From Candidatus Forterrea multitransposorum CG_2015-17_Forterrea_25_41 (GTDB lineage Archaea > Iainarchaeota > Iainarchaeia > Iainarchaeales > CSSED10-239): a DNA stretch of 64,000 nucleotides. Position 1 is the first letter of the stretch; the number at the start of each line of letters is the position of its first letter. Shown here piece by piece: positions 1,367 through 44,025 of this stretch. The DNA lies in NCBI GenBank assembly GCA_009392915.1, contig CP045477.1, forward strand, positions 1 to 64,000, read 5' to 3'. A program made the translations under genes and the position numbers. Under the pieces are notes generated by a model. The model was not told the origin of the DNA, made no database searches, and saw nothing but the letters and a program-made list of their open reading frames with translations.

Positions 1367-2207
1367 TTATTTTTTTTAGTTTCTCTAAATTTCTTTTTCT
1401 TTTAAAAAGAGGATTTTTATTTTTTTGATAAACATTTTGCATTTCTTCAAAGGTTTTTTTCTTTTTAGAAATATAAATTATTCCTAAAGGCATTTTTTCA
1501 GTTTCTAAAGCTTTTAAAATTGCATTTTCTTTATTTTCTGGATTATAATCTTTTTCTAAATAATATGTGTTTTCTTTAAACCATTCAAAAGTATTTATTT
1601 TATTAAAAGTTACACATGGTTGAAGAATATCTACAATTGATAAGCCTTTATGATAAATTGCTTTTTGTAAGATTTCTTTTGTTTCTTTCAAGTCCCCTAT
1701 GTTTGCTCTAGCAACAAAAGATGCATCTAAAGAAATAGCTAGAGAAATTGGGTTTAAGGGCTCTAAAATAACCCCTGTTGTCTGAACTATAGTTTTCATT
1801 CCTTTTTTACTTGTAGGAGATGCTTGTCCTTTTGTTAAACCATAAATCATATTGTTGTGCACAATTATTGTAATATCTGGATTTCTTCTAATAGCATGTA
1901 AAAAATGATTTCCACCTTCTCCATACATATCTCCATCTCCACTTGTAACAATTACTTTTAAATCAGGATTAACAGCTTTAATAGCGGTTGCAGGAGGAAG
2001 TGATCTTCCGTGAAGTCCATTAAAAAAATTTGTATTAATATATTGTGGTGTTTTTGCCGCTTGTCCTATTCCTGAAACTAAAACTATATTTTCTGGTTTT
2101 AGTTTGGTTTCTTCTAGTACTTTTTTTAAAACTAAGTGTATTCCAAAATTTCCACATCCAGGGCACCATGCAATTTCTGTTTGGTTTGAAAAATCTATTT
2201 TGTTCAT
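1356..2207 (-). CDS. korB: 2-oxoacid:ferredoxin oxidoreductase beta (TPP-binding) subunit
   Basis: N-terminal WCPGCGNFGI and TPP-binding GDGD motif; 283 aa; immediately downstream of the fused gamma-alpha ORF. Confidence 0.85.
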   Translation of the reverse strand: MNKIDFSNQTEIAWCPGCGNFGIHLVLKKVLEETKLKPENIVLVSGIGQAAKTPQYINTNFFNGLHGRSLPPATAIKAVNPDLKVIVTSGDGDMYGEGGNHFLHAIRRNPDITIIVHNNMIYGLTKGQASPTSKKGMKTIVQTTGVILEPLNPISLAISLDASFVARANIGDLKETKEILQKAIYHKGLSIVDILQPCVTFNKINTFEWFKENTYYLEKDYNPENKENAILKALETEKMPLGIIYISKKKKTFEEMQNVYQKNKNPLFKRKRNLEKLKKIIKI

Positions 2208-2210
2208 ATT

Positions 2211-5093
2211 TTAATCTAACCTCTCTGTTATTTCTTGCATGACCTCTTCTACAAAGAATTGCAATCCATTATATTTTAATATTTTAATAACTTCTTTATT
2301 TGTTTCTTTTTTAATAAGTTCTGCAAATTGCCCTGTTGCATTTCCTTCAATAACTATTATTTTTTTTGCAGATTTAAGTAAGTCTTTTGTTCCAGGATAA
2401 ATTGGATATAATTGTTCATAATGAAGATATTTTATTTTTTTATTATCTATTTTTTCAACAGCTTCTTTAATTGTTTCAAAAGTACTTCCCCATCCAATAA
2501 TAATTATTTCATTACCTTTTCCAATAATTGTTGGCTTTAAACTTTCAAAAGTTATATCTTCTATTCTTTTTAATCTTTTTTTAACCATTTTAATTCTTAA
2601 AGAAAAATCTTCTGTAATATGTCCTGTTTGGTCATGTTCGTCACTATCCACACAAACTAAACCTTTTCCAAAGCCAGGGATTGCTCTAGGGGAAATTCCA
2701 CTTTCTGTAAAAGCATATCTTTGATAATCTTTTTTACTTTCTATAATATATTTTTCTTTATCTTCTTTTATTTCTATTTTTTCAAAAGGATAAAGATTTT
2801 CCATAAAATATTGATCTGTTAATATAAAAACAGGAATTTGGTATTTTTGAGAATCAATAAAAGCTTTGTTTGTAATCTCTACAGCACTTTTTAAATTTTT
2901 AGGAGCATATACAATTCTTGCAAATTCTCCATGTCCAGCGTGCATAACTAAATTTAAATCTTCTTGAGCTGTTCTTGTTGGAAGTCCAGTTGCAGGTCCT
3001 GGTCTTTGAGCTACATGTATGACTAATGGAGTTTCTATCATTCCTGCAAGGCTTACACCTTCACACATAAGTGCAAATCCTCCACCAGATGTGTTTGTAA
3101 GTGATCTTGCACCTGCAAAAGATGCTCCTAAACACATGTTTATTGCTGAAATTTCATCTTCTGCTTGTTCTACAATAATATCAAAATTTTCTCTTAATTT
3201 TGCTAGATTTTGTAAAACACCTGTTGATGGTGACATTGGGTATGCTGATATAAAATCACACCCTCCAGCAATTGCTCCGTATGCTATTGCTTGAGCACCT
3301 GTAAATAAATTATTTAATTTTATTTGTTTATTTTTTTTAATTTTTGGTAAATTTTTAACTATTTTTAAAATTTCTTTTCCTTTTAAAATACCTTTTTCTG
3401 CTGCTTGAATATTTTTTAAAACAATTTCTTTTCCTTTTTTTGAAAAACTTTCTTTTAGTTGTTTTATAAAATATTTTTTATTAATATTTAGTATTCCTAA
3501 AAGAGTTCCTGTTGCAACAGTGTTTGCAAAAACTTTATTTCCTATTTTTTCTGCAATTTCTTTAAAGGAAACATCAATTGTTTTATTTTTAAGCCCTAAT
3601 TTTCTAACTTCTTCTTTATTTCCAATAATAATTGTATTTTCATCAATTCTTTCTTTTAAATGTTCTATAGTATTTTTATCTAAAGCAAGTAAAATATCTA
3701 TTTTTTTTAAATTTCCTCTTCTTTCTTTTTCTGTAAGTCTAATAGATATGGTGTTAACTCCTCCTCTAACTCTTGACATATATTCAGAGTTTGAAGAAAA
3801 GTAAAAACCTTCTTCTTTAAGTATTTTAAGTAAAACATTTTGAACAGATACAAGACCTTGGCCTGCTTCTCCAGAAAGTACAATTGATAATTCTTTTTCA
3901 TCTATTTTTTTATTTTTAATTTCTTTTTTAAAAAGTTCTTTTGTTTTTTCAGTAATTATCTTTGAAAATTCATTTAATTTTTTAAAGTTTTCTTTTTTAG
4001 GAATTCCTGTTGAAATTTCTCCTAAAATAACTTCTGCTTCAAAATTATTTGTAATATTTTCAAATTCTTTAAAGGCTTCCCCACCCCATTCTTTAGATCC
4101 AATAAATCCAATAATTTTTGTTTTTGGTTTTAATTTATTTAAAGTACTAACTGTTGTTGAAACAATAGGGTGAAGCCCACCTAAAAAAGTAGGAGATGCT
4201 ATAATTAAAGTTGACGCATCTACCATTTCAATTGCAAGTTGTCCTATCTCTGTAGTTGTAAGATTATATTCTTTAACTTTATTGCCTTGGTTAATAAGTT
4301 TAGAAGTTAAATATTCAACCATTTTTTTTGTACTTCCGTGCATAGAAGTATACCCAATAATTATTTTTGGTTTGGTTTCTTTTTTTGACCAATTATAGTA
4401 TTTATCAATTATCCAATCAACATCTTGGTATATTTTTCCATGACTTGGAGCTATTATTTTTGGATTATATTCTTTTATTTTTTCTAAGTTTTTAAGAATA
4501 TAATTTCTAAAAGGCATCATTATTTCTGCATAATATCTTTTAGCAGGTAATTCTATTTCTTTTGTATCTTTAACAAATAATTCGCTTGTTGCAAGATGTG
4601 CTCCAAAAAAATCACAAGAAAACAAAATTTTATCTTCTTTTAAAAAAGTAGACATAGTTTCTGGCCAATGAACCCAAGGAGTATAAATAAATTTTAAGGT
4701 TTTATCTCCTAAGCTAATTTCTTCTAAGTCTTTAATAACTTGTATTCTTTTTTCCTCAATTACCATTTCATCTAAAAGTATTTTTTTACAAAGAGGATTA
4801 CAAATTAATTTTGCTTTTGGAAATTTATTTAAAATTATAGGTATTGATCCAGAGTGATCTTGTTCTGCATGATTAGATATAATATAATCTATATTTTTAA
4901 TATTTAATTTTTCTAAGTTTAAAATAAGTTCTTCTGTTTTTGTAATGTCAACAGTGTCTATTAAAGCTGTTTTTTTAGATCCAATTATTAAGTATGAATT
5001 GTAGCTAGTTCCATCTGGAAGATAGATTAGTTCATCAAAAAGCTTTCTATCCCAATCAATGGCTCCAACTGAATATATGTTTTTCTTAATCAT
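2211..5093 (-). CDS. Fusion protein: flavodiiron protein (MBL-like diiron domain plus flavodoxin domain) joined to OFOR gamma and alpha subunits
   Basis: N-terminal ~400 aa carry the FDP diiron ligand motif NHAEQDHSGS and downstream His/Asp ligands, then a flavodoxin-type SMHGSTKKM; a lysine-rich linker; a KorC-like segment (LSGEAGQGLV); a KorA-like segment (TGAQAIAYGAIAGGCDFISAYPMSPST). Single uninterrupted 960-aa ORF. Confidence 0.7.
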   Translation of the reverse strand: MIKKNIYSVGAIDWDRKLFDELIYLPDGTSYNSYLIIGSKKTALIDTVDITKTEELILNLEKLNIKNIDYIISNHAEQDHSGSIPIILNKFPKAKLICNPLCKKILLDEMVIEEKRIQVIKDLEEISLGDKTLKFIYTPWVHWPETMSTFLKEDKILFSCDFFGAHLATSELFVKDTKEIELPAKRYYAEIMMPFRNYILKNLEKIKEYNPKIIAPSHGKIYQDVDWIIDKYYNWSKKETKPKIIIGYTSMHGSTKKMVEYLTSKLINQGNKVKEYNLTTTEIGQLAIEMVDASTLIIASPTFLGGLHPIVSTTVSTLNKLKPKTKIIGFIGSKEWGGEAFKEFENITNNFEAEVILGEISTGIPKKENFKKLNEFSKIITEKTKELFKKEIKNKKIDEKELSIVLSGEAGQGLVSVQNVLLKILKEEGFYFSSNSEYMSRVRGGVNTISIRLTEKERRGNLKKIDILLALDKNTIEHLKERIDENTIIIGNKEEVRKLGLKNKTIDVSFKEIAEKIGNKVFANTVATGTLLGILNINKKYFIKQLKESFSKKGKEIVLKNIQAAEKGILKGKEILKIVKNLPKIKKNKQIKLNNLFTGAQAIAYGAIAGGCDFISAYPMSPSTGVLQNLAKLRENFDIIVEQAEDEISAINMCLGASFAGARSLTNTSGGGFALMCEGVSLAGMIETPLVIHVAQRPGPATGLPTRTAQEDLNLVMHAGHGEFARIVYAPKNLKSAVEITNKAFIDSQKYQIPVFILTDQYFMENLYPFEKIEIKEDKEKYIIESKKDYQRYAFTESGISPRAIPGFGKGLVCVDSDEHDQTGHITEDFSLRIKMVKKRLKRIEDITFESLKPTIIGKGNEIIIIGWGSTFETIKEAVEKIDNKKIKYLHYEQLYPIYPGTKDLLKSAKKIIVIEGNATGQFAELIKKETNKEVIKILKYNGLQFFVEEVMQEITERLD

Positions 5094-10273: not shown

Positions 10274-11557
10274 TTGTTTTTAAACATTTTTATCTATATA
10301 TTATTTATGTCTTATATCCCTGATTTTCATAAGATTAAATACTTTACAGAAAAGTTTAAAGAATACTATCAAAATAATTATATCTCTTGTATATTGGATG
10401 TTTCAAAAAGAGAGTTTGGAATTGGTACTATACAATCTAAAATAAGTCAAAGACATTTATCTTTTGTATCTTTAGAAGATTTTAATAATTATTTAAGAAT
10501 TACTCCTCCTTTTTATGTTTCTTATTCAACAAGTTATTTTAAATATCCAGATAGAAGACCAATGGATAATAAAATATGGGAAGGTTCAGACATTGTTTAT
10601 GAGTTTGATTCAGATGATTATGATCTACCATGCCATGATAGACATAATACTTGGCAATGTACAAGTGAAGAATGTAATGAATGGGGTTATGGAAATTTAA
10701 CAGAATGCCCTAAATGTTTTTCAAAAACAAAGATTACAGAATGGACTTGTGATGAATGTTTAGGAAAAGCAAAAGAAGATACCTTAAGATTAGTTGATTT
10801 TTTAGAAAAAGAATTTAAATTAAATCCAGCAAGCTTTATTATTAGTTTTTCAGGTGCTAAAGGGTATCATGTAAGAATAACTGATAGAACAATAATTTCT
10901 TTATCTAAACCTGCAAGACTACAGATGATGAACTATATTTTAGCAAATGATTTAGAGCTTGAAAAATTAGGTTTTATAAAACAGAAAAAACTTTGGAAAA
11001 TACCACCTATAAAAGAAGCAGCTGGATGGTCTAAAAAGATTTTACATGGAATAATTGATATTTTTTCTTATGATGAAAAAAAGCTTATTAATTTATTTGG
11101 ACTTTCTCCAAAAAAAGCAAAACTTTTAAAGGATACAAAAGAAGATATTTTAAATAAGATGTATCATAATAATATATTAGTTGCTGATTTTTCTTCAAGT
11201 GATAAATTCTTTGAAGATGTTATAAATCATGTAATAAACAAGACTAGACTTAAAATAGACCCTCAATCATCTTCAGATATTTTTAAGATAATGAGGGTTC
11301 CAGATACTATTCATGGTGGTACTGGTTTTTTATCAACATATATTAAGACAAAAGAAGATTTAATTAATTTTGATCCTTTCAAAGATCCTGTTGTTTTAGG
11401 TACTATGGATCTAAAAAAAATAAAATTATTAAAACCAACACCTAAATTTAGAATAATTGACCAATATTATGGTCCTTATAATAAAGATGAGGTTTTAAAA
11501 CTTCCAGAAAAAGTATCAATGTTTTTAGTTCTTAAAGGGGTGGCAAATTTTGAGTGA
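10274..11557 (+). CDS. priS: DNA primase small (catalytic) subunit PriS, archaeo-eukaryotic primase family
   Basis: Acidic EFDSDDYD motif, AEP signature SFSGAKGYHVRI, zinc-binding CPKC/CDEC pair; the Met at 10307 is a plausible alternative start. Confidence 0.65.
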   Translation: MFLNIFIYILFMSYIPDFHKIKYFTEKFKEYYQNNYISCILDVSKREFGIGTIQSKISQRHLSFVSLEDFNNYLRITPPFYVSYSTSYFKYPDRRPMDNKIWEGSDIVYEFDSDDYDLPCHDRHNTWQCTSEECNEWGYGNLTECPKCFSKTKITEWTCDECLGKAKEDTLRLVDFLEKEFKLNPASFIISFSGAKGYHVRITDRTIISLSKPARLQMMNYILANDLELEKLGFIKQKKLWKIPPIKEAAGWSKKILHGIIDIFSYDEKKLINLFGLSPKKAKLLKDTKEDILNKMYHNNILVADFSSSDKFFEDVINHVINKTRLKIDPQSSSDIFKIMRVPDTIHGGTGFLSTYIKTKEDLINFDPFKDPVVLGTMDLKKIKLLKPTPKFRIIDQYYGPYNKDEVLKLPEKVSMFLVLKGVANFE

Positions 11558-23622: not shown

Positions 23623-24739
23623 TATAATTGTGTTGCATAACTCTTTTTAAAAGTATTGTCTAACCTATTTTATTACTAGATAAAGGAGGTTAGACAATAT
23701 GAATATTAAGAACGAAAAGATTAATAAAAGGAACTGGTCAAAGATAAATTATGGAAAAACAAGACAAATCTTGTTTTTACTAGATAAAAACATTATTTTT
23801 AGTGAAAATGAAAGACTAGTTTCCCAAAATAAAAACAAACCAGGAAGACAATTTATATATAGTGATAGAATAATAGAACTATTAATTGATCTTAAAAATT
23901 ATTTTAAATTTGATTATCGTAAACTACAGGCATTCTGCCTGTTGTTTAATAATGTTATAAAAATAAAAACACCTGACTTTACAACTATTTGTAGAAGAAT
24001 GCACAAATTAGAATTATTTCTAAAAAATATAAAAACAAAAAAAGAACCAACCTTTATAGCTATAGATGGTTCTGGACTTCAAACTACTAATCGAGGAGAA
24101 TGGCTTAGATTAATACACAAAAAAGGAAAAATAAACTTAAGAAATGGATTTGTAAAATTAGTGATTGCAACAGATGTTGCATCTGGAGAAATAACTGGAG
24201 TGTATATTTCAGATGATTCTGATTTTGAAAATAAAAGCTTATCAGATTTATTATACCAAACAATAAATAATCAAAACCAAGAAGTCAAAGGACTTCTTGG
24301 AGATGGGGCATACGATTCTTATGATAACTTTGATATGCTTGATGATATGGGAATAAAACCAATTATCAAAATCAGAAAGAATGCAATTACAACAGAACCT
24401 AATGACGATTATTTAAAAAGAAGAAGAAAACTTGGAAAAAAGAAAAAAATAAAAAGAATTGAAGTTGCAAAAAAGCAACTTAAAAATGTAGATGACTGGA
24501 AACAAAAAAATGAGTATAATAAAAGGTGGGTTGTTGAATACACGTTTAGTGTATTCAAAAGACTATTCGGACATAGTGTGTACTCTAAAAGAAAGAAATA
24601 TGTCAAAAATGAAGTAATTTCTAAAGTAAATTTGTATAATAAATTATTAAATATCAATTAAGAAAAAAATAAAATGAATTAAAAAAAGAAATAAGCTAAA
24701 AATATTGTGTAAAACACAATATTTGTGCAACACAATTTT
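23623..24739 (+). mobile_element. IS5-family-like insertion sequence with ~17-bp imperfect terminal inverted repeats
   Basis: Left end ATAATTGTGTTGCATAA (23623-23639) and right end TTGTGCAACACAATTTT (24723-24739) are reverse complements, with a 12/12 core AATTGTGTTGCA (23626-23637) / TGCAACACAATT (24726-24737); single transposase ORF inside. Confidence 0.6.
23699..24661 (+). CDS. DDE transposase, IS5-like (DDE_Tnp_1 type)
   Basis: IAIDGSGL (D), LLGDGAYDS (D), C-terminal VVEYTFSVFKRLFG (E...K) typical of IS5/IS4-type transposases; 320 aa. Confidence 0.75.
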   Translation: MNIKNEKINKRNWSKINYGKTRQILFLLDKNIIFSENERLVSQNKNKPGRQFIYSDRIIELLIDLKNYFKFDYRKLQAFCLLFNNVIKIKTPDFTTICRRMHKLELFLKNIKTKKEPTFIAIDGSGLQTTNRGEWLRLIHKKGKINLRNGFVKLVIATDVASGEITGVYISDDSDFENKSLSDLLYQTINNQNQEVKGLLGDGAYDSYDNFDMLDDMGIKPIIKIRKNAITTEPNDDYLKRRRKLGKKKKIKRIEVAKKQLKNVDDWKQKNEYNKRWVVEYTFSVFKRLFGHSVYSKRKKYVKNEVISKVNLYNKLLNIN

Positions 24740-24818
24740 TTTTATCTTTTTTAGTTACATTTATAAATATAATCTTCTTTAATATTAGTACCTTATATAT
24801 ATTATACTCAGATCATTT

Positions 24819-26192
24819 ATGGCTATAGACAAAAGATTTTTTTTAGGGATAACTATTAGTAAAAAAAGAAAAGCAATTTCTCCTTTAATTGCCACTATTC
24901 TTTTAATAGTTGTTGCCGTTGCAATTATAGCTATTATTGTTTCCTGGGGAAAAGGATTTACCAATGATTCTTTAAGCAAAGCCTCTGGTCTTGAAATTTA
25001 CACTGAATCAGAAACTTCTTTTTACTTGCAAGTAAAAAATTCAATAAACGGAAGAACTGTTGTTCAATATAATCCTCCTTATAATTCTCCTCACACCTCT
25101 TTAACCATAACAGGTTATAGCCTACATGGTAACACGAATATTAATCCCATAGATCCACCAATTACAATAACTGCAAACCAAACTGCAGTTATTGATCATG
25201 GTATTTTATTTCCAGAATTAAATTTAGTTTTATATTTGGATAATGATCGAATGATTATTAAAACTGATCTTTTACAAACTATTAAATCTCCTCTTTCTTG
25301 TCCAGAAGGTTATGTTTCTGTTCCAGGAAACCACTTATATGGAACTATGAATGAAAGTGGGGGTTTTTGTGTTTCAAAATATGAGATGAAAATGGATAGA
25401 ACAGGAGATGGAATAGGAAATCTTGTAGCTGATTATCCTGATTGTAACACCGGTTCTTTAACATATAATACTTATAGTTATGAATTATGCCCTACACCAG
25501 GCACTTTAGTTTCTACTCCAGAAGGTTCTCCCATAGCAAGAATCACACAAACTGAAAGCATATCAGCCTGTGAAGCTATTGGTGGTCATTTAATAACAAA
25601 TAACGAATGGATGACCATTGTACGAAACATAGAACAAGTTCCATCTAATTGGTCAGGTGGAGCAGTTGGTGATGGCTACCTTCCAAGAGGGAATTCATCT
25701 TCTTCAGGAGCTATGGAAGGCTTTGATCAACTTTCAGGAACTACCAAAAGAACCTTGACCTTAACAAACGGAGAGGTAATTTGGGATTTAGCAGGAAATG
25801 TAAGACAATGGACCAGTGACACTATTCAAAGAAAGGACCAGCCTGATGGTTTTAATAATGTAGATGATAGTAATAATACTTCTGGTTTTAATTGGTTTGA
25901 TTATTTTAAGGGCGGTGGAGTAGATCAATATATTTATTCTGATAATTTAGGTAACACCACCTTAAAGTATAAAGATTTATTTTTATTAACTAGTAATACT
26001 TATAATGCAACAGATAATGGTGTTGGAAGGATTTATACTTATAGTGATTTTAGTGATACTAGTACAACTGAGTACGCGTTTTTGCGCGGTGGTCACTGGG
26101 GCAATGGCACTAATGCCGGGGTCTTGCACCTGGTCTTGAACAAGACTCCTGGGTCCCGGAGCATCCTCATCGGCCTGCGCTGTGTCAAGTAG
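24819..26192 (+). CDS. DGR target: pilin-like (class III signal peptide) surface protein with C-terminal FGE/C-type-lectin-fold variable region
   Basis: N-terminus KAISPLIATILLIVVAVAIIAII (archaeal pilin-like); C-terminus YAFLRGGHWGNG...LIGLRCVK resembles the FGE-sulfatase/CLec fold used by DGR variable proteins; its last ~120 nt form a GC-rich VR matching the TR. Confidence 0.75.
   Translation: MAIDKRFFLGITISKKRKAISPLIATILLIVVAVAIIAIIVSWGKGFTNDSLSKASGLEIYTESETSFYLQVKNSINGRTVVQYNPPYNSPHTSLTITGYSLHGNTNINPIDPPITITANQTAVIDHGILFPELNLVLYLDNDRMIIKTDLLQTIKSPLSCPEGYVSVPGNHLYGTMNESGGFCVSKYEMKMDRTGDGIGNLVADYPDCNTGSLTYNTYSYELCPTPGTLVSTPEGSPIARITQTESISACEAIGGHLITNNEWMTIVRNIEQVPSNWSGGAVGDGYLPRGNSSSSGAMEGFDQLSGTTKRTLTLTNGEVIWDLAGNVRQWTSDTIQRKDQPDGFNNVDDSNNTSGFNWFDYFKGGGVDQYIYSDNLGNTTLKYKDLFLLTSNTYNATDNGVGRIYTYSDFSDTSTTEYAFLRGGHWGNGTNAGVLHLVLNKTPGSRSILIGLRCVK
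26072..26192 (+). repeat. DGR variable repeat (VR), 3' end of the target gene
   Basis: ~55% GC in a ~25% GC genome; near-identical to 27297-27417 with 13 mismatches, 12 of them at template adenines; identical 3' 24 nt CATCGGCCTGCGCTGTGTCAAGTAG (IMH-like). Confidence 0.8.
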
Positions 26193-26498
26193 TTTTTAGA
26201 AAAAATATATTTCATCCCCAAACCATGTATTTAGACGGGTGAGACGGCAAGACGGCCAGACGGAAGAAGCCATGGCAACCTAAACGTTTCAAGATTGTTT
26301 TTGCAAAAAAATGAAAAAACGTATTTGTGAAGTTTTAAAAAAAAGAAATGAGTGTGATTTTTGCAAATTTTTTTGATTTTTTTCAAAAAAATTTGCTAGC
26401 CGTTAAACCAAATGGTTTTTTAATGTAAAAATAATTTTTATAATAATTAAGTTTTAAAGAAAAAATACTTTATATCTTGGACAAACAATGTGATTTAA

Positions 26499-26885
26499 AT
26501 GAGTTTAGTTGGAAATGAAAAAGGAATTCTAAATTTTGGTGTTTACAAGGAGCTTTTCCCAATCGTTATTGAAACTTATAATTTTTTAGAAAATAATAAA
26601 TCTTTATTTAAAGTAGATTTTGTTTATACAGATACTGTTAAAAATTTAATAGATATTCTTTCTTTTCTTTCCAAAGGGTATAATAAATTTCATTCTAATG
26701 AAAAATCTTTACTTTACTCTTATTCAAGAGATTGTGTTTCTACAACCCAATCTAATCTTTTAATATTATCTGAACTTAATAAAGATCTCTCAAAAGAAAA
26801 AACCTTATATTTTTATAATCAATTTGAGGATAAAATAAAGTATTTTAATGGTTTAATAAAAAAGATTGAAGAAAATAAAAACTAG
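26499..26885 (+). CDS. Hypothetical protein inside the DGR cassette
   Basis: 128-aa ORF between the target gene and avd; no recognisable motif. Confidence 0.3.
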   Translation: MSLVGNEKGILNFGVYKELFPIVIETYNFLENNKSLFKVDFVYTDTVKNLIDILSFLSKGYNKFHSNEKSLLYSYSRDCVSTTQSNLLILSELNKDLSKEKTLYFYNQFEDKIKYFNGLIKKIEENKN

Positions 26886-26896
26886 GGTATATTATT

Positions 26897-27226
26897 ATGT
26901 TATTTGACTTAAAGTTATATAAAGAAACTTATAACTTTTTACTTTATATTTATCCTGAAATAAATAAATTCCCTAAATCAGATAAATATTCTTTAGGAGA
27001 GGATATTAAAAAAACAACTATTTCTTTAATGTCAAATATTGTTCTTTTTTCAAAGCATAATGAAAATACTTTAAAAGAAGCAGATAAAAACTTAGAATTA
27101 CTAAGAATATATATTAGGCTTTCTTTTGATTTAAAAATAATCTCTTTTAAAAAATATGAGGTTATTTCAAGGCAATTAAATGATATTGGTAATTTATTAG
27201 GTGGTCTTTTAAAACAAAAGATTTAA
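26897..27226 (+). CDS. avd: Accessory variability determinant (Avd)-like four-helix-bundle protein
   Basis: 109 aa, predicted all-helical, basic; sits immediately upstream of TR and RT (canonical avd-TR-RT order). Confidence 0.55.
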   Translation: MLFDLKLYKETYNFLLYIYPEINKFPKSDKYSLGEDIKKTTISLMSNIVLFSKHNENTLKEADKNLELLRIYIRLSFDLKIISFKKYEVISRQLNDIGNLLGGLLKQKI

Positions 27227-27296
27227 ATATTTTTTCAACTAATAGTTATGTTGTTCTTTTAAATAAAAAGAATAGGGCTTTTACAGAAAAAAACAG

Positions 27297-27417
27297 GTGC
27301 GCGTTTTTGCGCGGTGGTAACTGGAACAATGGCACTAATGCCGGGGTCTTGAACCTGAACTTGAACAATACTCCTGGGAACCGGAACAACAACATCGGCC
27401 TGCGCTGTGTCAAGTAG
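27297..27417 (+). repeat. DGR template repeat (TR)
   Basis: GC-rich noncoding copy of the VR containing AAC/AAT codons (would encode N-rich ...NWNNGTNAGVLNLNLNNTPGNRNNNIGLRCVK); located between avd and the RT. Confidence 0.8.
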
Positions 27418-27678
27418 TTTCTCCTTATTATTTTTAATAATAAGGTTTTATCAGAGTTTGTATGTTTATTTTTTTATCTAAAAAAACATATAAAGCGAAT
27501 ATTTTAAAAAACTACATCTGTAAAATGTTTCCTGATTGCACATAATGTGTGCCATAAGAACTATTTTGTTTTTATGTTAAAAAATCAAATATAAAGATAA
27601 GTTATTACATTTAGTATTTTTATAGTCTGTAAAAAGAAATCTGTAATAACTCTTAACTTTAAATAAGGCTTTTTAAAA

Positions 27679-28695
27679 ATGAAATCATACAATAACCTTT
27701 GGCAAGAATTCACTTCTTTTAAAAATATTTTTAATGCCTATAAAAAAGCAAGAAAGTCCACACCAAACAAAAAGTATATCTTGCAATTTACCACAAATTT
27801 AGAAAAGGAGTTATTCTTATTACAAGATCAATTAATTTCAGAAAATTTTCAATTTTCTCCTTACAGAAGTTTTAAAGTTTATGAACCTAAAGAAAGAACA
27901 ATAAGTGCACCTATTTTCAGGGATGTTGTTGTTCAGCATGCCATAATAAACATTATTGAACCTATTTTTGATAAAACCTTTATAGATAACTCTTTTGCTT
28001 GTAGAAAAGGAAAAGGCACACATAAAGGGCTTTTTGAAATTAAAAAAGTAATTCAAACCCCAAATCATCCAAAATACTATTTAAAACAAGATGTAAAGAA
28101 ATACTTTCCTTCAGTTCATAAACCTACCTTAAAAGAAATAATTTTTAAAAGAATTAAGGATGCAAGATTACTTTCTCTAATATATAAAATAATTGATAGT
28201 TATTCTTTTGATTTAAATCAAATTCAAAAAGGTATCCCTATAGGTAATTTAACCTCTCAGTTGTTTGCAAATATTTATTTAAACCATTTAGATCAGTATG
28301 TTAAGCATTCTTTAAAAATTAAACATTATTATAGATATGTAGATGATTTTTTAATATTTTCAAACAATAAAAGAAAATTACATGTTTTTAGAAGAAAAAT
28401 AAAATTATTTTTAAGTAAAGAACTATTATTAGATGTTCCAAAAAATAAAACTTATATAAACTTAGTAAGTAAAGGAGTTGATTTTTTAGGTTATAAGGTA
28501 TTTCCTTCAAACATAAGATTAAGAAAATCAAATCTTAAAAGATTTCTTCTAAGACAAAATAAAAATAACTTTCTTCTAAAAAAAAATCAAATTTCTAAAC
28601 TTAACTATAATTTTTCTCTTTTTTCTTTTTTAGGTTATGCAAAGCATGCAAACTCTTATAATCTCTTAAGTACTTTAAATATTAATGAGTTATAG
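27679..28695 (+). CDS. DGR-type reverse transcriptase
   Basis: RT motifs: ISAPIFRDVVVQHAI, IGNLTSQLFANIYL (the DGR-specific SQ variant of QGxxxSP), YYRYVDDF (YxDD catalytic motif); 338 aa. Confidence 0.85.
   Translation: MKSYNNLWQEFTSFKNIFNAYKKARKSTPNKKYILQFTTNLEKELFLLQDQLISENFQFSPYRSFKVYEPKERTISAPIFRDVVVQHAIINIIEPIFDKTFIDNSFACRKGKGTHKGLFEIKKVIQTPNHPKYYLKQDVKKYFPSVHKPTLKEIIFKRIKDARLLSLIYKIIDSYSFDLNQIQKGIPIGNLTSQLFANIYLNHLDQYVKHSLKIKHYYRYVDDFLIFSNNKRKLHVFRRKIKLFLSKELLLDVPKNKTYINLVSKGVDFLGYKVFPSNIRLRKSNLKRFLLRQNKNNFLLKKNQISKLNYNFSLFSFLGYAKHANSYNLLSTLNINEL
28589..28687 (+). repeat. 99-bp direct repeat, copy 1 (3' end of the RT gene)
   Basis: Identical to 30138-30236. Confidence 0.85.
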
Positions 28696-28838
28696 TTTAT
28701 TTTTATTATGGGCACTTGAGCGTCTATTTTAAACTTAAATTATAATCTTTTACTAACGCACTATACCTTAATTATAATCTTCTATCAAAAGACTATATTT
28801 AAAAATGTTTTTATTATATATTATATTAGTGATAAAAT

Positions 28839-30104
28839 ATGGATAAAGCTTTTTTAAGAAACGTTGTTTCTGACCAGTATGAAGATTTAAAAGATGTTTC
28901 AAAAACAATACAAAGATATGATTCAAAAGAAATAGCGCGCTTTGTAAATAATCCTGCTATATCTATAATTTCAGGAGTAAGGCGTTGTGGTAAGTCCACT
29001 TTTTTAGAGCAGATAATAAATTTATATTATAAAAATAACTTTTATTATTTTGATTTTTCTGATGAAAGAATTGCAAAATTTGAAACTGCTGACTTTCAAA
29101 CATTATATGAGGTGTTTTTAGAAAAATTTGGAAAAAGACAGGCTTTTTTCTTTGATGAAATACAAGGAGTTCCAGAATGGAATAAATTTGTTAATAGAAT
29201 GAAAAAGATTGGGCATAAATGTTTTGTAACCGGTTCAAATTCAAATTTGTTAAGTCAAGAAATATCTACTTATCTAACAGGAAGACATATTGATAAAATC
29301 TTATTCCCTTTTTCCTTTAAAGAATATTTAACGTATAAAAATATTAATGTAGATTTAGATTCTACAAAATCAAGAACCTTAATTATTAAAGAGTTTAAAA
29401 ATTACTTTAAAATAGGTGGTTTTCCAGAGGTTGTTTTAACAAACGATACTTCAATTTTATTAAATATTTATTCTGACATAATTTCTAAAGATATAATTGA
29501 AAGATTTAGGATTAATGATGTTTCTTTATTTAAAGAATTTTGTAATTATGTAATTTCTTTATCTACGAATGAATTTACTTTTAAATCATTAAAAGATAAT
29601 TTTAATATTCAGAATATTACTACTGTTTCAAACTATCTTGATTATCTTAAATTAACTTACCTTGTTTATGAAGTTAAAAGATTTTCTTCTTCATTACAAA
29701 AATTAAATAAATATCCAAAAAAATATTATTGTATAGATAATGGTTTATTAAATAAAGTGGGTTTTGGATATTCAATAGAGGAAACTAGATTTTTAGAAAA
29801 TCAAGTTTTTATTGAACTTTGGAGAAATAATCCGCAATCTGAAATTTATTATTATAGAGATAAGGATAATAAAGAATGTGATTTTTTATTGTTAAATGAT
29901 AGAAAAGTAGTTAAGGCTATTCAAGTGTGTTTTGCTTTTAAAAAGATAGATACTAGAAAAAGAGAAATAGAAGGTTTACTATCTGCTTTAAAAGAGTTTA
30001 ATCTAAATTATGGCGAAATTATTACTTTTGAGCATAAAGAAAAATTAAAGATAGATGGAAAAGTAATAGAGATGATTCCTGTATATGAGTGGTTATTAAA
30101 ATAA
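28839..30104 (+). CDS. AAA+ ATPase of the COG1373 / DUF4143 family
   Basis: Walker A SGVRRCGKST, Walker B FFFDEIQ, C-terminal DUF4143-like region; 421 aa. Confidence 0.65.
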   Translation: MDKAFLRNVVSDQYEDLKDVSKTIQRYDSKEIARFVNNPAISIISGVRRCGKSTFLEQIINLYYKNNFYYFDFSDERIAKFETADFQTLYEVFLEKFGKRQAFFFDEIQGVPEWNKFVNRMKKIGHKCFVTGSNSNLLSQEISTYLTGRHIDKILFPFSFKEYLTYKNINVDLDSTKSRTLIIKEFKNYFKIGGFPEVVLTNDTSILLNIYSDIISKDIIERFRINDVSLFKEFCNYVISLSTNEFTFKSLKDNFNIQNITTVSNYLDYLKLTYLVYEVKRFSSSLQKLNKYPKKYYCIDNGLLNKVGFGYSIEETRFLENQVFIELWRNNPQSEIYYYRDKDNKECDFLLLNDRKVVKAIQVCFAFKKIDTRKREIEGLLSALKEFNLNYGEIITFEHKEKLKIDGKVIEMIPVYEWLLK

Positions 30105-30137
30105 TTTTTTTTAATTTTAAAAAAGGCTTTACCTTTA

Positions 30138-30236
30138 AAATTTCTAAACTTAACTATAATTTTTCTCTTTTTTCTTTTTTAGGTTATGCAAAGCATGCAA
30201 ACTCTTATAATCTCTTAAGTACTTTAAATATTAATG
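30138..30236 (+). repeat. 99-bp direct repeat, copy 2 (duplicated RT 3' end)
   Basis: Identical to 28589-28687; here it reads ...INGFIV* instead of the RT's ...INEL*. Confidence 0.85.
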
Positions 30237-30336
30237 GTTTTATAGTGTAGATTCTCTTTGCATTAAAAATATTGTTTTTGAAAAAAACAAAGCTTTAAAT
30301 TTTGTTTATTTATATAATATATTAGGTGAAAGCAAT

Positions 30337-30549
30337 ATGAAATATAGAGTTTTAATAGAACAAGACGAAGATGGTATCTTTGTTGCTGAATGCCCTAGTC
30401 TTCCAGGTGCAATTTCTCAAGGAAAAACAAGAGAAGAAGCAATAATAAATATTAAAGAAGCCATAAAAGGTTATCTTGAAAGTTTAAAGATAGCTAATGA
30501 ACCAATTCCTTCTCCAATATCTGAAGAAATAATTGATATTTATGGATAA
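30337..30549 (+). CDS. hicB: HicB-family antitoxin (UPF0150)
   Basis: MKYRVLIEQDEDGIFVAECPSLPGAISQGKTREEAIINIKEAI is a classic HicB/UPF0150 fold signature; overlaps hicA by 17 nt. Confidence 0.7.
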   Translation: MKYRVLIEQDEDGIFVAECPSLPGAISQGKTREEAIINIKEAIKGYLESLKIANEPIPSPISEEIIDIYG

Positions 30550-30766
30550 ACTGCCTATTATATCTGGTCAAGATTTAATCAAATTACTTCTAAAATTAGA
30601 TTATCAAGTTCATCATCAAACTGGATCACATATTATCTTAAGACAAAATAAAGAACCTTTTAGAAGATTAACAATTCCAAACCATAAAGAAATTTCAATA
30701 GGGACTTTAAGAGCAATTATAAGGCAAGTTGGAATAACAAGAGAAGAATTTGTTAAATTATTCTAA
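30533..30766 (+). CDS. hicA: HicA-family mRNA interferase toxin
   Basis: QTGSHIILRQ ... motif of the HicA/YcfA family; 77 aa. Confidence 0.7.
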   Translation: MIFMDKLPIISGQDLIKLLLKLDYQVHHQTGSHIILRQNKEPFRRLTIPNHKEISIGTLRAIIRQVGITREEFVKLF

Positions 30767-31041
30767 ATTAAATTGTTCTTTTAATTATTATTTTTAATTT
30801 TTTTAAAGTAAAATAAATAATTTTTAACCTAATTTAAATGTTTTTAAGTAATTTATAATATTTTTTTAATTTACTACATAAAAACAAATCTTTTTAAGCA
30901 ATTCGGTCTATAATTATATTATATAAAAAATCTACTTTTATAAATATCCTATTTTTTGCGGCTGTTTTAATTATTAAAAACAGTAGTAGATAGGTTATTG
31001 ATTTTTAGTTTCTATGATTAGAAGACAAGAGGTTAATTAAC

Positions 31042-38286: not shown

Positions 38287-38462
38287 TAGCTGGTTTCGGT
38301 CAGCTAGCACCCAATGATTTTGCGTTTGTTAACGCTTATTTAAACTTTCTTTTTAAAAGAAGTGATTTTCCCCCAAAACTTTTTTTCTTTAAAAATTGTG
38401 TTTTAAAAATTTTTAATCTATTTTATATCTATTTAAAATACTTTTGCCTCTCTTTAATATTT

Positions 38463-41013: not shown

Positions 41014-44000
41014 ATGTCCGTAGAGAAATATAAAGCAACAAATGATAAAGATTTATTTGATGAAGTAGAATCTTCTAATAGAAAGTATGTTAATGAAGAT
41101 ACTATTAAAGATATTGAAGATAAATTAAAAAAATCAAGAGAAGAACATCCTTTAGAAGATGTTGAAAATTTTTCTGAAATTGATGATTCTGAAGATGATG
41201 ATTCTGAAGATGATGATAACTTAGATGAAGTTGATTTAGAAGAAAACTCTGAAGATGAAAATTCAGAAGATAATAATTCAGAAGATAATAATTCAGAAGA
41301 TAATAATTCAGAAGATAATAATTCAGAAGATAATAATTCAGAAGATAATAATTCAGAAGATAATAATTCTGAAGATAATGATATAGATGAAGCTGATTTA
41401 GAAGAAGACTCTGAAGATAATAATTTAGAAGAAGATAATGTTGAAAAAGACCTAAATGAAATTGATTCTAAAGAATCAGATTTAAAAGAAGATTTTACTA
41501 AAAACTCAAATATATCAAAAGAGATTACTAAAGATAAAGATATACCTGCTAAAAGTTCAGAAATTATAATTAAACCAGCACTTAAATTCTTAGAAGATTT
41601 ACAAGACCCTAATGTAGTTTATTTAGGTAGAAAAAAATCTGTTTTAAAACAATATGGAAAGATAGCTACAGCATATATAGGAAAAGTTGCTGAAAATCAA
41701 CAAGAAGGCAAACAAGTTAACATAGATGGTCTAAATCCACACGTTATTTTCTTAGATGGTGCTAGAGGAACAGGTAAGAGTTATCTTTTAGGGGTAATAG
41801 CAGAAGAGCTTGCAAGAACAAACCCATATATAGGGCAAATAGTAATTGATCCTGTAGGTGTTTTCTGGTCAATGAAATTTCCAAACAGAGATTCAAAAGA
41901 ATTAAAAATTTTAGAAGAATGGGGTTTAAAGGCAGAAGGTCTTAAAAACTTAAAAGTCTTTGTTCCAGAAGGTATAGTTTCTCAAGTTTCAAAAGATACT
42001 TATGATGACACTTTTTCAATGTTTCCTTCTCTTTTAACTCCAGAAGATTGGTGTTTAACTTTTGGTATTGAAAGATTTTCTCCATCAGGCTTACTTTTAG
42101 AAAAAACTTTAGAGTCTGTAAAGAAAGGATATGTTACAGGTGGAACAAAAGATGTTCCTGATGTTAAAAAAATATCAGCAAAAGGAAATCATTTTACTTT
42201 AGAAGATATTATTAACTGTCTTCAAAACAATTCTGAATTTCAATCTTCTCAAAAAGGTTATAAACCAGATTCTATAAGAGCTTTAGTTTCAAGATTTGAA
42301 GCTGCAAGATCTTGGGGTATATTTTCAGATTCTGGAACTCCTCTTTCAAAACTTTCAAGAGAAAATCAATTAACTGTGCTTGATACTTCTTTTTTAGATG
42401 AAAATATTACTGCTTTAGTTATTGGTATTTTAGCTAGAAGAATTCTTTCTGCAAGAAAACTTCTTGCAAGACAAGAAGCTGTTAAAAAATATGGTGATTC
42501 AACACAAAAAGCAGAAGAACTTTTAGAAATTGAAATTCCTCCAACATGGATGTATATTGATGAAGCACACACTTTAATTCCTTCTGGAAATTCTCAAACA
42601 CCAGCAACTGCAGGAATTATAGAGTATGTTAAGCAAGGAAGAAGACCTGGTTGTTCTTTAGTTTTTGCAACACAACAGCCTTCTGCAATAAACACTAAAG
42701 TTTTATCACAAGTTGATATATTAATCTCAAATAAATTAGTTTTTAATGATGATATTTCTGCAATTCAAAAAAGAATGCCTGCAATAATACCAAAGCAATA
42801 TAAAGAACCAAATTTTATAAAGACTTTGCCTTTTGCAACTGCTCTTGTAGGAGATAGATCAGAAGAAACTTCTAGAGCTTTTATTTTAAGAGCAGCACCA
42901 AGAAGATCTCAACATGAAGGTCGTGATGCAGAAACAATTAGAGAGATTCCTAAAAAAAATAAATCTGAAGTTTTAGAAATTGCTTTTAAAATGGTTTATG
43001 AAAAATTAGAAAAAACAAAAGAAATTAAAGTGTCTTTTGCAAAAGATATTTTAGATGTTATTAATATTAAATATAGAGGAACTGTTGAATATGATGAACT
43101 TTTAGAAAAACTTTTAGAAAAAAATGTTTTACTTAAAGAAGATCTTCTATATCTTAATGAAAATTTTTTCAAAGAATATAATCAAGAAGAAAAATTAGTT
43201 TCTAATGATTCCGAAAATACTGATGAAATAAATTCTTTAGATGAAAATGAGCTTGAAAATATTGAAGAAAATTTAGAACATGTTAAAAGTAGTGTTTCAA
43301 AAGTAAAAGTAAGAAATACTATTGCAGAAAGAATTTCAAAAGCAAATATTGAAGAAATTGCAAATCAAAATATTAAAAAATCTTTATTATTTAAACCAAA
43401 AGAAGAAATTTTAAATATTGTTTTAAAATATAGAACAATTTATAAAATAAGTTATAATGTTTATGATTCACAAGATTCTTTTAAGACAAATACTTGTTTT
43501 GTGGATTCTGTAACTGGTGAGTTTATACATTTTTTAAATGGAGAGTTTAAGATTTCTTCTGGTTTAAATGTTTTAGATAAAATTAATGAAGATTATTTAG
43601 AGATTCTTTATCTTTTAAATAAACAACATACTTTGTTTTCTTTAAATCAAGAAACAGATATTGAAGAAAAAGATTTAATTGAAATGATTGATTCTTTTAA
43701 AGAATTAAATTTAATTACTGTTAAAAATAATTCTGGTATAGATGTTTATAAAATAGATTCAAAAGCTTTTGATATTCCTTTTAACCCGACTATTAAAGTT
43801 CTTTCATCTTTAGATGTTTTACCTTTAAAAAAACAAGATGTTGAGTTTTTAGAATCAATAAACTATTCTTTAAATGTTATTCAAGATAATTTAAAGAAAT
43901 TATGGGGTGAAATTGAATTTACTTCTCTTCAAGAAATCTATTGGCCAATTTGGCAAATTACTTATAATAATAAAGAAGGAAATAGAGTTTTAAAAGTAGA

Positions 44001-44025
44001 TGCTGTAACAGGCAAAAAAATGTGA
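41014..44025 (+). CDS. Large HerA/FtsK-like P-loop ATPase with N-terminal acidic tandem-repeat region
   Basis: Walker A LDGARGTGKSYLL, Walker B MYIDEAHTL, conserved GCSLVFATQQPSAINTKVLSQVD block paralogous to the 13752-15299 ATPase; N-terminal SEDNN repeats; 1003 aa. Confidence 0.5.
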   Translation: MSVEKYKATNDKDLFDEVESSNRKYVNEDTIKDIEDKLKKSREEHPLEDVENFSEIDDSEDDDSEDDDNLDEVDLEENSEDENSEDNNSEDNNSEDNNSEDNNSEDNNSEDNNSEDNNSEDNDIDEADLEEDSEDNNLEEDNVEKDLNEIDSKESDLKEDFTKNSNISKEITKDKDIPAKSSEIIIKPALKFLEDLQDPNVVYLGRKKSVLKQYGKIATAYIGKVAENQQEGKQVNIDGLNPHVIFLDGARGTGKSYLLGVIAEELARTNPYIGQIVIDPVGVFWSMKFPNRDSKELKILEEWGLKAEGLKNLKVFVPEGIVSQVSKDTYDDTFSMFPSLLTPEDWCLTFGIERFSPSGLLLEKTLESVKKGYVTGGTKDVPDVKKISAKGNHFTLEDIINCLQNNSEFQSSQKGYKPDSIRALVSRFEAARSWGIFSDSGTPLSKLSRENQLTVLDTSFLDENITALVIGILARRILSARKLLARQEAVKKYGDSTQKAEELLEIEIPPTWMYIDEAHTLIPSGNSQTPATAGIIEYVKQGRRPGCSLVFATQQPSAINTKVLSQVDILISNKLVFNDDISAIQKRMPAIIPKQYKEPNFIKTLPFATALVGDRSEETSRAFILRAAPRRSQHEGRDAETIREIPKKNKSEVLEIAFKMVYEKLEKTKEIKVSFAKDILDVINIKYRGTVEYDELLEKLLEKNVLLKEDLLYLNENFFKEYNQEEKLVSNDSENTDEINSLDENELENIEENLEHVKSSVSKVKVRNTIAERISKANIEEIANQNIKKSLLFKPKEEILNIVLKYRTIYKISYNVYDSQDSFKTNTCFVDSVTGEFIHFLNGEFKISSGLNVLDKINEDYLEILYLLNKQHTLFSLNQETDIEEKDLIEMIDSFKELNLITVKNNSGIDVYKIDSKAFDIPFNPTIKVLSSLDVLPLKKQDVEFLESINYSLNVIQDNLKKLWGEIEFTSLQEIYWPIWQITYNNKEGNRVLKVDAVTGKKM
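41266..41385 (+). repeat. 15-bp coding tandem repeat (GAAGATAATAATTCA, ~7.5 copies; encodes [SEDNN]n)
   Basis: Perfect copies at 41266, 41281, 41296, 41311, 41326 and 41341, then degenerate copies. Confidence 0.9.

Follow-up and report, generated by a model that had tools for sequence, protein, structure and literature searches.

The first 64,000 nucleotides of contig CP045477.1 from the archaeon Candidatus Forterrea multitransposorum (GenBank assembly GCA_009392915.1; this whole stretch is the window in what follows) carry a diversity-generating retroelement (DGR) whose reverse transcriptase (RT) gene is followed by a small cassette set between perfect 99-nt direct repeats. The cassette holds a single gene, for an ATPase of the candidate defence family PDC-S01. 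This unit was probably inserted behind the RT gene with a long duplication of its target, and it encodes no recombinase. The analysis demonstrates the insertion itself, the origin of the repeat in the target, the lack of mobility genes and terminal repeats, DGR activity that, to judge from sequence variation, has continued, and the recurrence of the same pattern across the ATPase family.

That the cassette is a gain follows from natural empty sites. An earlier note, made from the letters of the window, had proposed insertion of an ATPase cassette at the 3′ end of the RT gene and had recommended looking for a related RT locus that lacks the ATPase. Two syntenic relatives of this kind were found. 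In the first (L034, GCA_015657875.1) the DGR is intact; its RT ends with ...NIK* and is followed by a 349-nt spacer and then by FKBP26, while the ATPase and the HicBA pair of the window are both absent. The second is a sister genome (L019, GCA_964526055.1) with a single RT tail, one in each of its tandem units. Both relatives align with the window RT as far as its tail. In both, the sequence behind the tail aligns with window positions 30237–30277 on the plus strand (83% for L019, 77% for L034), which follow the second repeat copy, and homology picks up again at 30874. This short segment, which includes the old tail ...GFIV*, is the ancestral RT-downstream sequence; thus, copy 2 together with what lies downstream of it represents the ancestral arrangement. 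Read from these alignments, ∼1.55 kb, or one repeat plus the cassette, was gained in the window lineage.

The repeat could be verified in full. Positions 28589–28687 and 30138–30236 are identical over all 99 nt, as had been noted, with a start-to-start spacing of 1549. Copy 1 (plus strand) lies within the functional RT open reading frame (ORF), between the second base of codon 304 and the first base of codon 337, both included. The claim that it comprises the last 99 nt of the RT gene therefore holds for the 3′ region of the gene but not for its very end, since the final two codons and the stop (28688–28695) fall outside the repeat. Copy 2, also on the plus strand, is a displaced, non-functional RT tail that is not a called protein. 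The in-frame remnant ...INGFIV* said to follow it is present, in a 53-codon ORF (30089–30250) that runs through copy 2; an exact look-up of its 53-amino-acid product in a 15-billion-protein collection returned no called protein. The bracketed segment, put at ∼1.45 kb with a single ATPase gene, measures 1450 nt and holds one gene, at 28839–30104, with AAA_14 and DUF4143 domains. At the window's G+C content of 24.6%, the per-base match probability is ∼0.315 and the longest chance repeat expected in 64 kb is ∼18–19 nt. By arithmetic from the same composition, a 99-mer repeat has an expectation of ∼1e-40, which rules out chance as its source. The 99-nt sequence occurs twice in the window, where the only other exact repeats of at least 25 nt are the template repeat/variable repeat (TR/VR) pair of the DGR, paralogous tRNA-Ser genes and a tandem repeat at 41260. 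Fifteen contig records, drawn from Joint Genome Institute (JGI) and European Nucleotide Archive (ENA) assemblies of different samples, have both copies at the same distance of 1549 nt. The copies are perfect in 14 of these; the remaining record (L017) has one single-nucleotide polymorphism, in copy 1 only.

The perfect block may be only the conserved part of a duplication of ∼113–125 nt. Positions 28688–28712 (plus strand) would be a degenerate continuation of the duplicated target, made up of the final two RT codons, the stop and ∼17 nt, with a boundary placed at ∼28712. A longer extent is indicated because BLAST homology between copy 1 and the L034 empty site passes through the copy to 28705, 18 nt beyond the perfect block, and because 28688–28712 and the sequence after copy 2 have in common TG.GTT(T)ATAGT.TA, which the outgroups do not contain. 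The resemblance of 28688–28712 to the RT-downstream sequence of L034 is marginal (p about 0.05).

The insert amounts to one gene with its own upstream region. The upstream region occupies 28713..28838 on the plus strand, with homology to cassettes elsewhere beginning at 28731–28774. It contains two 32-nt tandem repeats (28730–28793), which have equivalents in the related cassettes of L021 and L026 and are probably regulatory. The gene (28839..30104, plus strand) encodes an AAA_14 and DUF4143 protein of COG1373 (Pfam values 2.1e-34 and 6.2e-23), and the cassette's 3′ flank spans 30105..30137 on the same strand. Homology to other cassettes stops at 30097–30120, and the junction with copy 2 is the same in a diverged strain contig, L027.

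The ATPase is a full-length match to the PADLOC candidate defence gene PDC-S01 (PDLC04787; E = 1.5e-102, residues 22–421), which bears out the link of COG1373 to defence loci drawn in the earlier note. In a recent survey, PDC-S01 is reported to come fourth in frequency among the (candidate) defence systems of prokaryotes, with validation pending; it is enriched in Archaea and described as an ATPase fused to a PD-(D/E)XK domain (PMC12988326), and DUF4143/COG1373 has been placed in the PD-(D/E)XK superfamily (PMC3424549). The window protein shares this combination of an ATPase with a PD-(D/E)XK-superfamily domain along its full length, and it belongs to a family that is enriched in archaea and small-genome symbionts and whose defence role is a candidate one, pending validation. 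An AlphaFold2 model of the protein reaches a predicted local distance difference test score (pLDDT) of 90. A fold search with this model gave the archaeal AAA+ structures 2fna and 2qen as the best matches, followed by STAND NTPases (NB-ARC, CED-4 and Avs); a sequence search of the ATPase profile against the PDB returned no match. Relatedness to transposition ATPases was considered and is unsupported, as TnsC and MuB scored no better in the fold search than generic AAA+ proteins.

Mobility of the cassette, suggested in the earlier note, is supported both by related cassettes in unrelated contexts and by flanking direct repeats throughout the family. Cassettes ∼81–84% identical in nucleotides (81–83% in protein) sit in unrelated surroundings, and ATPases that are 81–96% identical adjoin unrelated genes. 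For example, the neighbour is an NYN-domain gene in L021 and tRNA-Thr in L025, the ATPase of L026 lies next to a hydrolase and an aminoglycoside-kinase-like gene, and the ATPases of L028 and L033 adjoin other ATPases. Nucleotide homology of L021–L026 to the window is limited to the interval from 28731/28774 to 30097/30120. The homologous span is thus the gene plus ∼65–110 nt upstream and at most a few nt downstream, and this confinement marks the insert as a self-contained unit.

Two side observations concern tRNA genes near such cassettes. In L025 (5017–7160), there are three copies of the last 25–28 nt of tRNA-Thr(CGT): one in the tRNA itself, one behind an ATPase cassette and one behind a cassette with two small ORFs. 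A second ATPase then follows, giving a mini-cassette array at a tRNA gene; no integrase is visible on this 8.9-kb contig. In the window, just after tRNA-Ser CGA, positions 38288–38316 read TAGCTGGTTTCGGTCAGCTAGCACCCAATG and closely resemble the sequence that follows the cassettes of L026 and L033 (...GAGCTGGTTTCGCTCAGCTCGCACCCAATGG). The TAGCTGGTTTCGGTCAGCTAGCACCCAATG sequence could be what is left of an earlier insertion site that cassettes have carried along, or a small element that these loci have in common.

Flanking repeats were surveyed across the family. A subfamily profile search of species-representative genomes from archaea and many bacterial phyla yielded 68 loci, and for each gene with full flanks (n=51) the 600 nt upstream were compared with the 600 nt downstream. 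Mismatched flank pairs served as the null (maximum 31.5 bits) and same-length segments shifted 3.5 kb at the same loci as controls. Direct repeats scoring above 31.5 bits flanked 12 of 51 ATPase genes, versus 1 of 81 control segments (Fisher p = 4e-5). The sole positive control proved to be a second COG1373 gene with a 116-nt repeat, which corrects the tally to 13/52 versus 0/80. That gene (L099, 1250–2995, minus strand) has an 85%-identical direct repeat overlapping the 3′ end of a nucleotidyltransferase-like gene.

Across the family, the flanking repeats measure ∼25–124 nt, differ in sequence from locus to locus and are taken from neighbouring genes, while insert sizes range from 1328 to 1514 nt. 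In a member of the Thermoplasmata (L080), 124 nt (97.6%) cover the 3′ end of a convergent gene and its downstream sequence; in an Iainarchaeum genome (L038), 27 nt come from the end of the upstream gene. The starts of downstream genes are duplicated in Paceibacterota (L051, 79 nt including the promoter) and Saccharibacteria (L069, 29 nt), and in Margulisiibacteriota (L097) a 98-nt repeat lies near such a start. The repeats of L025 and L057 (25 and 34 nt) are tRNA 3′ ends. An Asgard archaeal locus (L045) has a duplication of ∼350 nt with a complex structure and was not counted as evidence. Together, these loci suggest that insertion with target duplication is a property of the family in archaea, candidate phyla radiation (CPR) bacteria and other phyla.

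The inserts of three bacterial phyla start a few bases upstream of a common sequence, TT(C)ATTGACA(A/G)TGAAAACTAT, which resembles a −35 box plus operator (L097, 5915–5955; L051, 5929–5970; L069, 1467–1510). Its position suggests that the mobile unit may begin right at its own promoter. Homologues of the ATPase also occur on 238 plasmids, of which 170 are from Acinetobacter and none from E. coli. On plasmids of Acinetobacter, small gene modules are known to shuttle between XerC/D pdif sites.

Searches for mobility machinery gave little. Pfam scans of 60 window ORFs found no integrase or recombinase, with Phage_integrase and serine recombinases among the families covered. The only mobility gene in the window is an IS5-like DDE transposase (23699–24661), 4 kb upstream of the insert and beyond the DGR. 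No significant terminal inverted repeats were found at the ends of 10 inserts, that of the window and nine others (scores 6–11, shuffle p 0.02–0.8), and the inspected repeat-flanked loci have no conserved attachment-site (att) core, their repeats being unrelated and derived from different neighbouring genes. In the literature that was searched, neither mobility nor flanking target duplications are described for DUF4143, COG1373, PF13173/PF13635 or PDC-S01.

We can propose a course of events that fits these findings. A unit of ∼1.43 kb would have been inserted ∼17 nt after the RT stop codon, with nothing in it but the PDC-S01 gene and the region upstream of that gene; the gene encodes a STAND-like AAA+ ATPase whose C-terminal domain is of the PD-(D/E)XK type. 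The insertion would not have been site-specific, nor would it have drawn on a recombinase encoded in the unit. The ends of the insert would have been joined to the target ∼100–125 nt apart, so that the interval was left on both sides. Because the duplicated interval holds the last 35 codons of the RT, the gene stayed intact and the DGR kept working. Later, gene conversion between the copies may have homogenised them, or allelic recombination, perhaps arriving with HicBA, may have replaced one tail; the mosaic tail of L027 supports such exchanges between tails. Once in place, the repeats could act as a substrate for homologous recombination, leading to deletion, amplification or circularisation of the cassette. 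With one repeat copy on board, a circle might enter this site again in other strains by homologous recombination, and the triple copies in L025 and L021 suggest that re-entry of this kind may form arrays and spread the cassette to other strains.

Repeat-mediated excision or loss of the cassette, raised in the earlier note, is plausible, though neither a deletion allele nor a circle turned up in the searches. The 340-amino-acid RT predicted for a deleted form was absent from the 15-billion-protein collection by exact look-up, a weak argument against a common deleted allele. A DNA scan of metagenome contigs for the deleted junction (RT body, 99 nt and hicB side) gave 0 matches in a collection that lacks the window's population; a control pattern inside the repeat, with 2 matches in the window, likewise gave 0, so that this null result carries no information.

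Several observations weigh against insertion with target duplication as the whole explanation. The two copies have 0 differences in 99 nt versus 4–5 in the next 14 nt (the next 14–25 nt differ), so that simple neutral divergence of one duplication is insufficient and a second event is needed. In L027, the ATPase is 96% identical and the junction from cassette to copy 2 is the same, whereas copy 1 has diverged strongly in its right half, and this mosaic tail means that the history includes recombination between alleles or copies. Being shared, the junction predates the split of the window and L027 strains, and the tails have been reshuffled since. L025 and L021 each carry one short sequence three times between successive cassettes, an arrangement that looks more like att-type or homology-driven re-integration than like independent target duplications. 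A proven empty site exists only for the window locus, and duplication elsewhere is deduced from the pieces of neighbouring genes within the repeats. The (D/E)xK nuclease motif reads QVC or QVS in the clade of the window ATPase, which makes nuclease activity of this protein uncertain; the L099 paralogue keeps the canonical EVD...EVK.

A first rival is Campbell-type homologous integration. A circle bearing the cassette and one RT tail, excised earlier from the same site in this or a related strain, would have recombined with the resident tail, and the perfect 99 nt would be the homology used rather than a duplication made at insertion. The abrupt end of identity at both borders of the 99 nt, with flanking tails that are still recognisably related, is in keeping with this course, as are the cassette arrays of L025 and L021 with their separating copies of one short sequence and the presence of two or more COG1373 genes in 11 of 78 loci. 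So is the L027 contig, whose 1567 nt hold almost exactly one period of mosaic tail plus cassette (1550 nt after removal of a 17-nt overlap of its ends), although it could equally be an assembly-graph loop arising from the flanking repeats. Nonetheless, such integration only moves the problem, because the first association of a cassette with an RT tail still needs an illegitimate event. The repeats of other loci stem from many unrelated targets, and no circular or tandem cassette junction was observed. We consider this explanation unlikely.

A more radical proposal is that the AAA_14-DUF4143 protein is the sole protein of an autonomous, one-gene, self-inserting element, and not (only) a defence protein. 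An assembly of the ATPase on the target would make two cuts at a distance of tens to >100 bases; after joining of the cassette, fill-in would leave the interval on either side. We regard this proposal as doubtful. If it is true, prokaryotes would have a transposable element of a new class, marked by target duplications that are long and variable, and one of the most abundant ‘candidate defence systems’ would be largely a selfish element.

Site-specific integration by a tyrosine or serine recombinase encoded elsewhere would make the cassette non-autonomous and the 99 nt an att identity block. Some loci do point to tRNA genes: L025 has a further copy of the 3′ 25 nt of tRNA-Thr behind each of two successive cassettes, in 3 loci the ATPase has tRNA genes upstream at a distance of up to 400 nt, and decayed tRNA-like fragments come after related cassettes. 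However, no integrase was found in the 64-kb window, the repeats of different loci lack a common core and range from ∼25 to 124 nt or more, and the targets include 5′ ends, 3′ ends and intergenic sequence. In L080, moreover, the downstream repeat starts within the last ATPase codons, leaving no room for a conserved end site. Such integration is therefore very improbable. An assembly artefact, in which a collapsed or chimeric repeat joined two strain variants, had been named in the earlier note as the refuting case and can be put aside almost entirely: although two contigs from different assemblies (L015 and L016) both begin at window position 28592, 3 nt inside copy 1, so that some assemblies break there, the structure recurs in the 15 independently assembled records, both genes are found on 37–38 contigs, the longest of 839 kb, as well as in four NCBI protein records, and the diverged L027 contig shows the same junctions. 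The common start of L015 and L016 could reflect an assembly-graph branch from a strain variant or a rearranged form.

Two further ideas failed. A role of the ATPase as a DGR accessory was ruled out, because the DGR of L034 is intact without it and the surroundings of close homologues are unrelated. The adjacent RT was likewise ruled out as the agent of a retroposition, because the insert brings along its upstream regulatory region and an RT is missing near most of the other repeat-flanked loci.

The closest precedent for an insertion that duplicates a long stretch of its target comes from restriction-modification genes (Nobusato et al. 2000, as cited by Furuta, Abe & Kobayashi 2010, NAR 38:2428, PMC2853133). 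These genes insert with long, variable duplications and without other mobile elements, and the repeats often extend over a neighbour's 3′ end. The mechanism is described as not known, although the cargo is suspected of breaking DNA; amplification through the repeats is known, and no archaeal case passed that screen (PMC2853133). The window shares much with this pattern: one genome has a small, self-contained gene unit that a relative lacks, and this unit lies between direct repeats of more than 30 bp and of variable length (99 nt here) that are single-copy in the empty site and not of high copy number. There is no transposase, integrase or phage gene in or beside the insert and no terminal inverted repeat, and the repeat again overlaps the 3′ end of a neighbouring gene. 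In both cases the cargo is of a nuclease family with a defence or selfish role, and the repeats are proposed to allow amplification and release. The differences lie in the cargo, the host and the target. The window unit is a single PDC-S01 ATPase with no methyltransferase, and its clade has an altered version of the canonical nuclease motif; it sits in a DPANN-type archaeon with the end of a DGR RT gene as its target, and the PDC-S01 pattern is family-wide, in about a quarter of loci. As the cargo is not a restriction-modification system, the window insertion is ranked as a variant of the Kobayashi type and not as a member.

Other mobile systems were compared as well. Among tRNA-targeting integrative elements, tycheposon-type islands, with cargo arrays flanked by partial tRNAs, offer a comparison. 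Direct repeats from the 3′ end of the target, a target gene that is kept intact, and the tandem cassettes of L025 split by repeat copies are shared features, whereas the window cassette has no integrase in 64 kb, PDC-S01 targets are varied and mostly not tRNAs, and the flanking repeats vary in length without a common core. Classical insertion sequences (IS) and DNA transposons likewise form discrete inserts between direct target duplications. Those of IS are fixed at 2–15 nt, whereas PDC-S01 duplications vary from 25 to 124 nt or more, and PDC-S01 inserts have neither terminal inverted repeats nor a recognisable transposase. For integron gene cassettes, which go with an IntI integrase and attC sites, the comparison covered the integrase, with none found in the window, and the upstream regions, which the cassettes described here carry and typical integron cassettes do not.

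The window thus provides a clean case, complete with empty site, in which a bare promoter-plus-ORF unit moved and ∼100 nt of target were duplicated. A poorly understood mode of insertion, hitherto linked with restriction-modification genes of bacteria, is thereby extended to Archaea and to another gene family. The survey suggests that this mode is typical of the PDC-S01 family, and the recurring flanking duplications suggest how a very common gene moves without a transposase or an integrase. PDC-S01 insertions may therefore be a tractable system for finding the mechanism. The locus further shows that a DGR can take up an insertion at its RT gene without losing activity, because the duplication preserves the ORF.

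The DGR itself has every component expected of such an element: an RT, the accessory protein Avd, adenine-specific TR/VR differences, and a target gene with a 3′ VR. It is intact and chromosomal, in an AT-rich archaeal host, and its target gene, Avd, TR and RT lie on the plus strand. The target gene (24819..26192; Pfam FGE-sulfatase) has an FGE-sulfatase/C-type-lectin-like C-terminus, and the VR (26072–26195) lies at its 3′ end. A 128-amino-acid ORF of no recognised identity comes next, between the target gene and Avd (26897..27226; Pfam bAvd, E = 2.2e-21), followed by the TR (27297..27420) and the RT (27679..28695; 338 amino acids, Pfam RVT_1), whose homologues are DGR-type RTs of DPANN archaea and whose last 35 codons are the site of the duplication. 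TR and VR pair over 124 nt at 89% identity, and 12 of their 14 differences fall at TR adenines. Between population contigs and samples (the window versus L003 and L013), the VR differs at 18 positions, 14 at TR adenines and 4 at non-adenines, while the RT and both repeat copies are identical in the same contigs, as is the TR in all population contigs checked. The DGR has thus diversified its target since the insertion, and the sequences indicate that it stayed active and that the RT is still functional.

Behind the RT lies an apparent hotspot for small cassettes. A HicB/HicA toxin–antitoxin pair (30337..30766, plus strand, identified by Pfam), absent from L034 and L019, represents a second, separate gain in the spacer between RT and FKBP26. 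Here, window positions 30278–30873 stand in place of 149 nt of the L034 spacer (11049–11197), and no flanking repeats were seen around this segment. In L034, the stretch that was replaced lies downstream of the RT and contains the hairpins TTGGCACTGCTAGTGCCAA and TTGGCATTGTTGGTGCCAA. Elsewhere in the same spacer, L019 contains a 340-nt remnant of a different COG1373 ATPase. With the ATPase and HicBA in the window and this remnant in L019, the spacer collects small cassettes.

L019 shows further changes. In its interval 1962–4674 (about window 24760–28705), VR and TR are fused to one copy, the intervening 1.2 kb with the 128-amino-acid ORF and avd is gone, and the RT is split into ORFs of 71 and 142 amino acids. 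This DGR looks as though it was inactivated by recombination between its own repeats, VR and TR. In the same assembly (L018/L019, CAZGHU010000001.1, ∼350.9–377.5 kb), a 6351-bp block occurs twice in tandem and comprises Hel308, UPF0175, the DGR target, RT fragments, the ATPase remnant and FKBP26. It could be a real duplication or an assembly effect.

Beyond the DGR, the surrounding genes belong to the core archaeal chromosome and include Orc1/Cdc6, PCNA, Rad50, primase, GINS, HerA and an intein-containing aRF1, with Hel308, proteasome, a CPSF-type nuclease, the CCA enzyme, TBP and AglB as further neighbours. The IS5-like transposase gene (23699–24661) lies between a UPF0175-like gene and the DGR target, and L034 and L019 are without this IS. 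Many population contigs stop at ∼24597–24615, inside the 3′ end of the gene, which suggests that the element is multi-copy or polymorphic. The tandem repeat mentioned above (41260–41373) consists of ∼7 copies of a 15-nt unit inside a 1003-amino-acid ORF (41014–44025), whose L034 counterpart is called DUF87/HerA-like.

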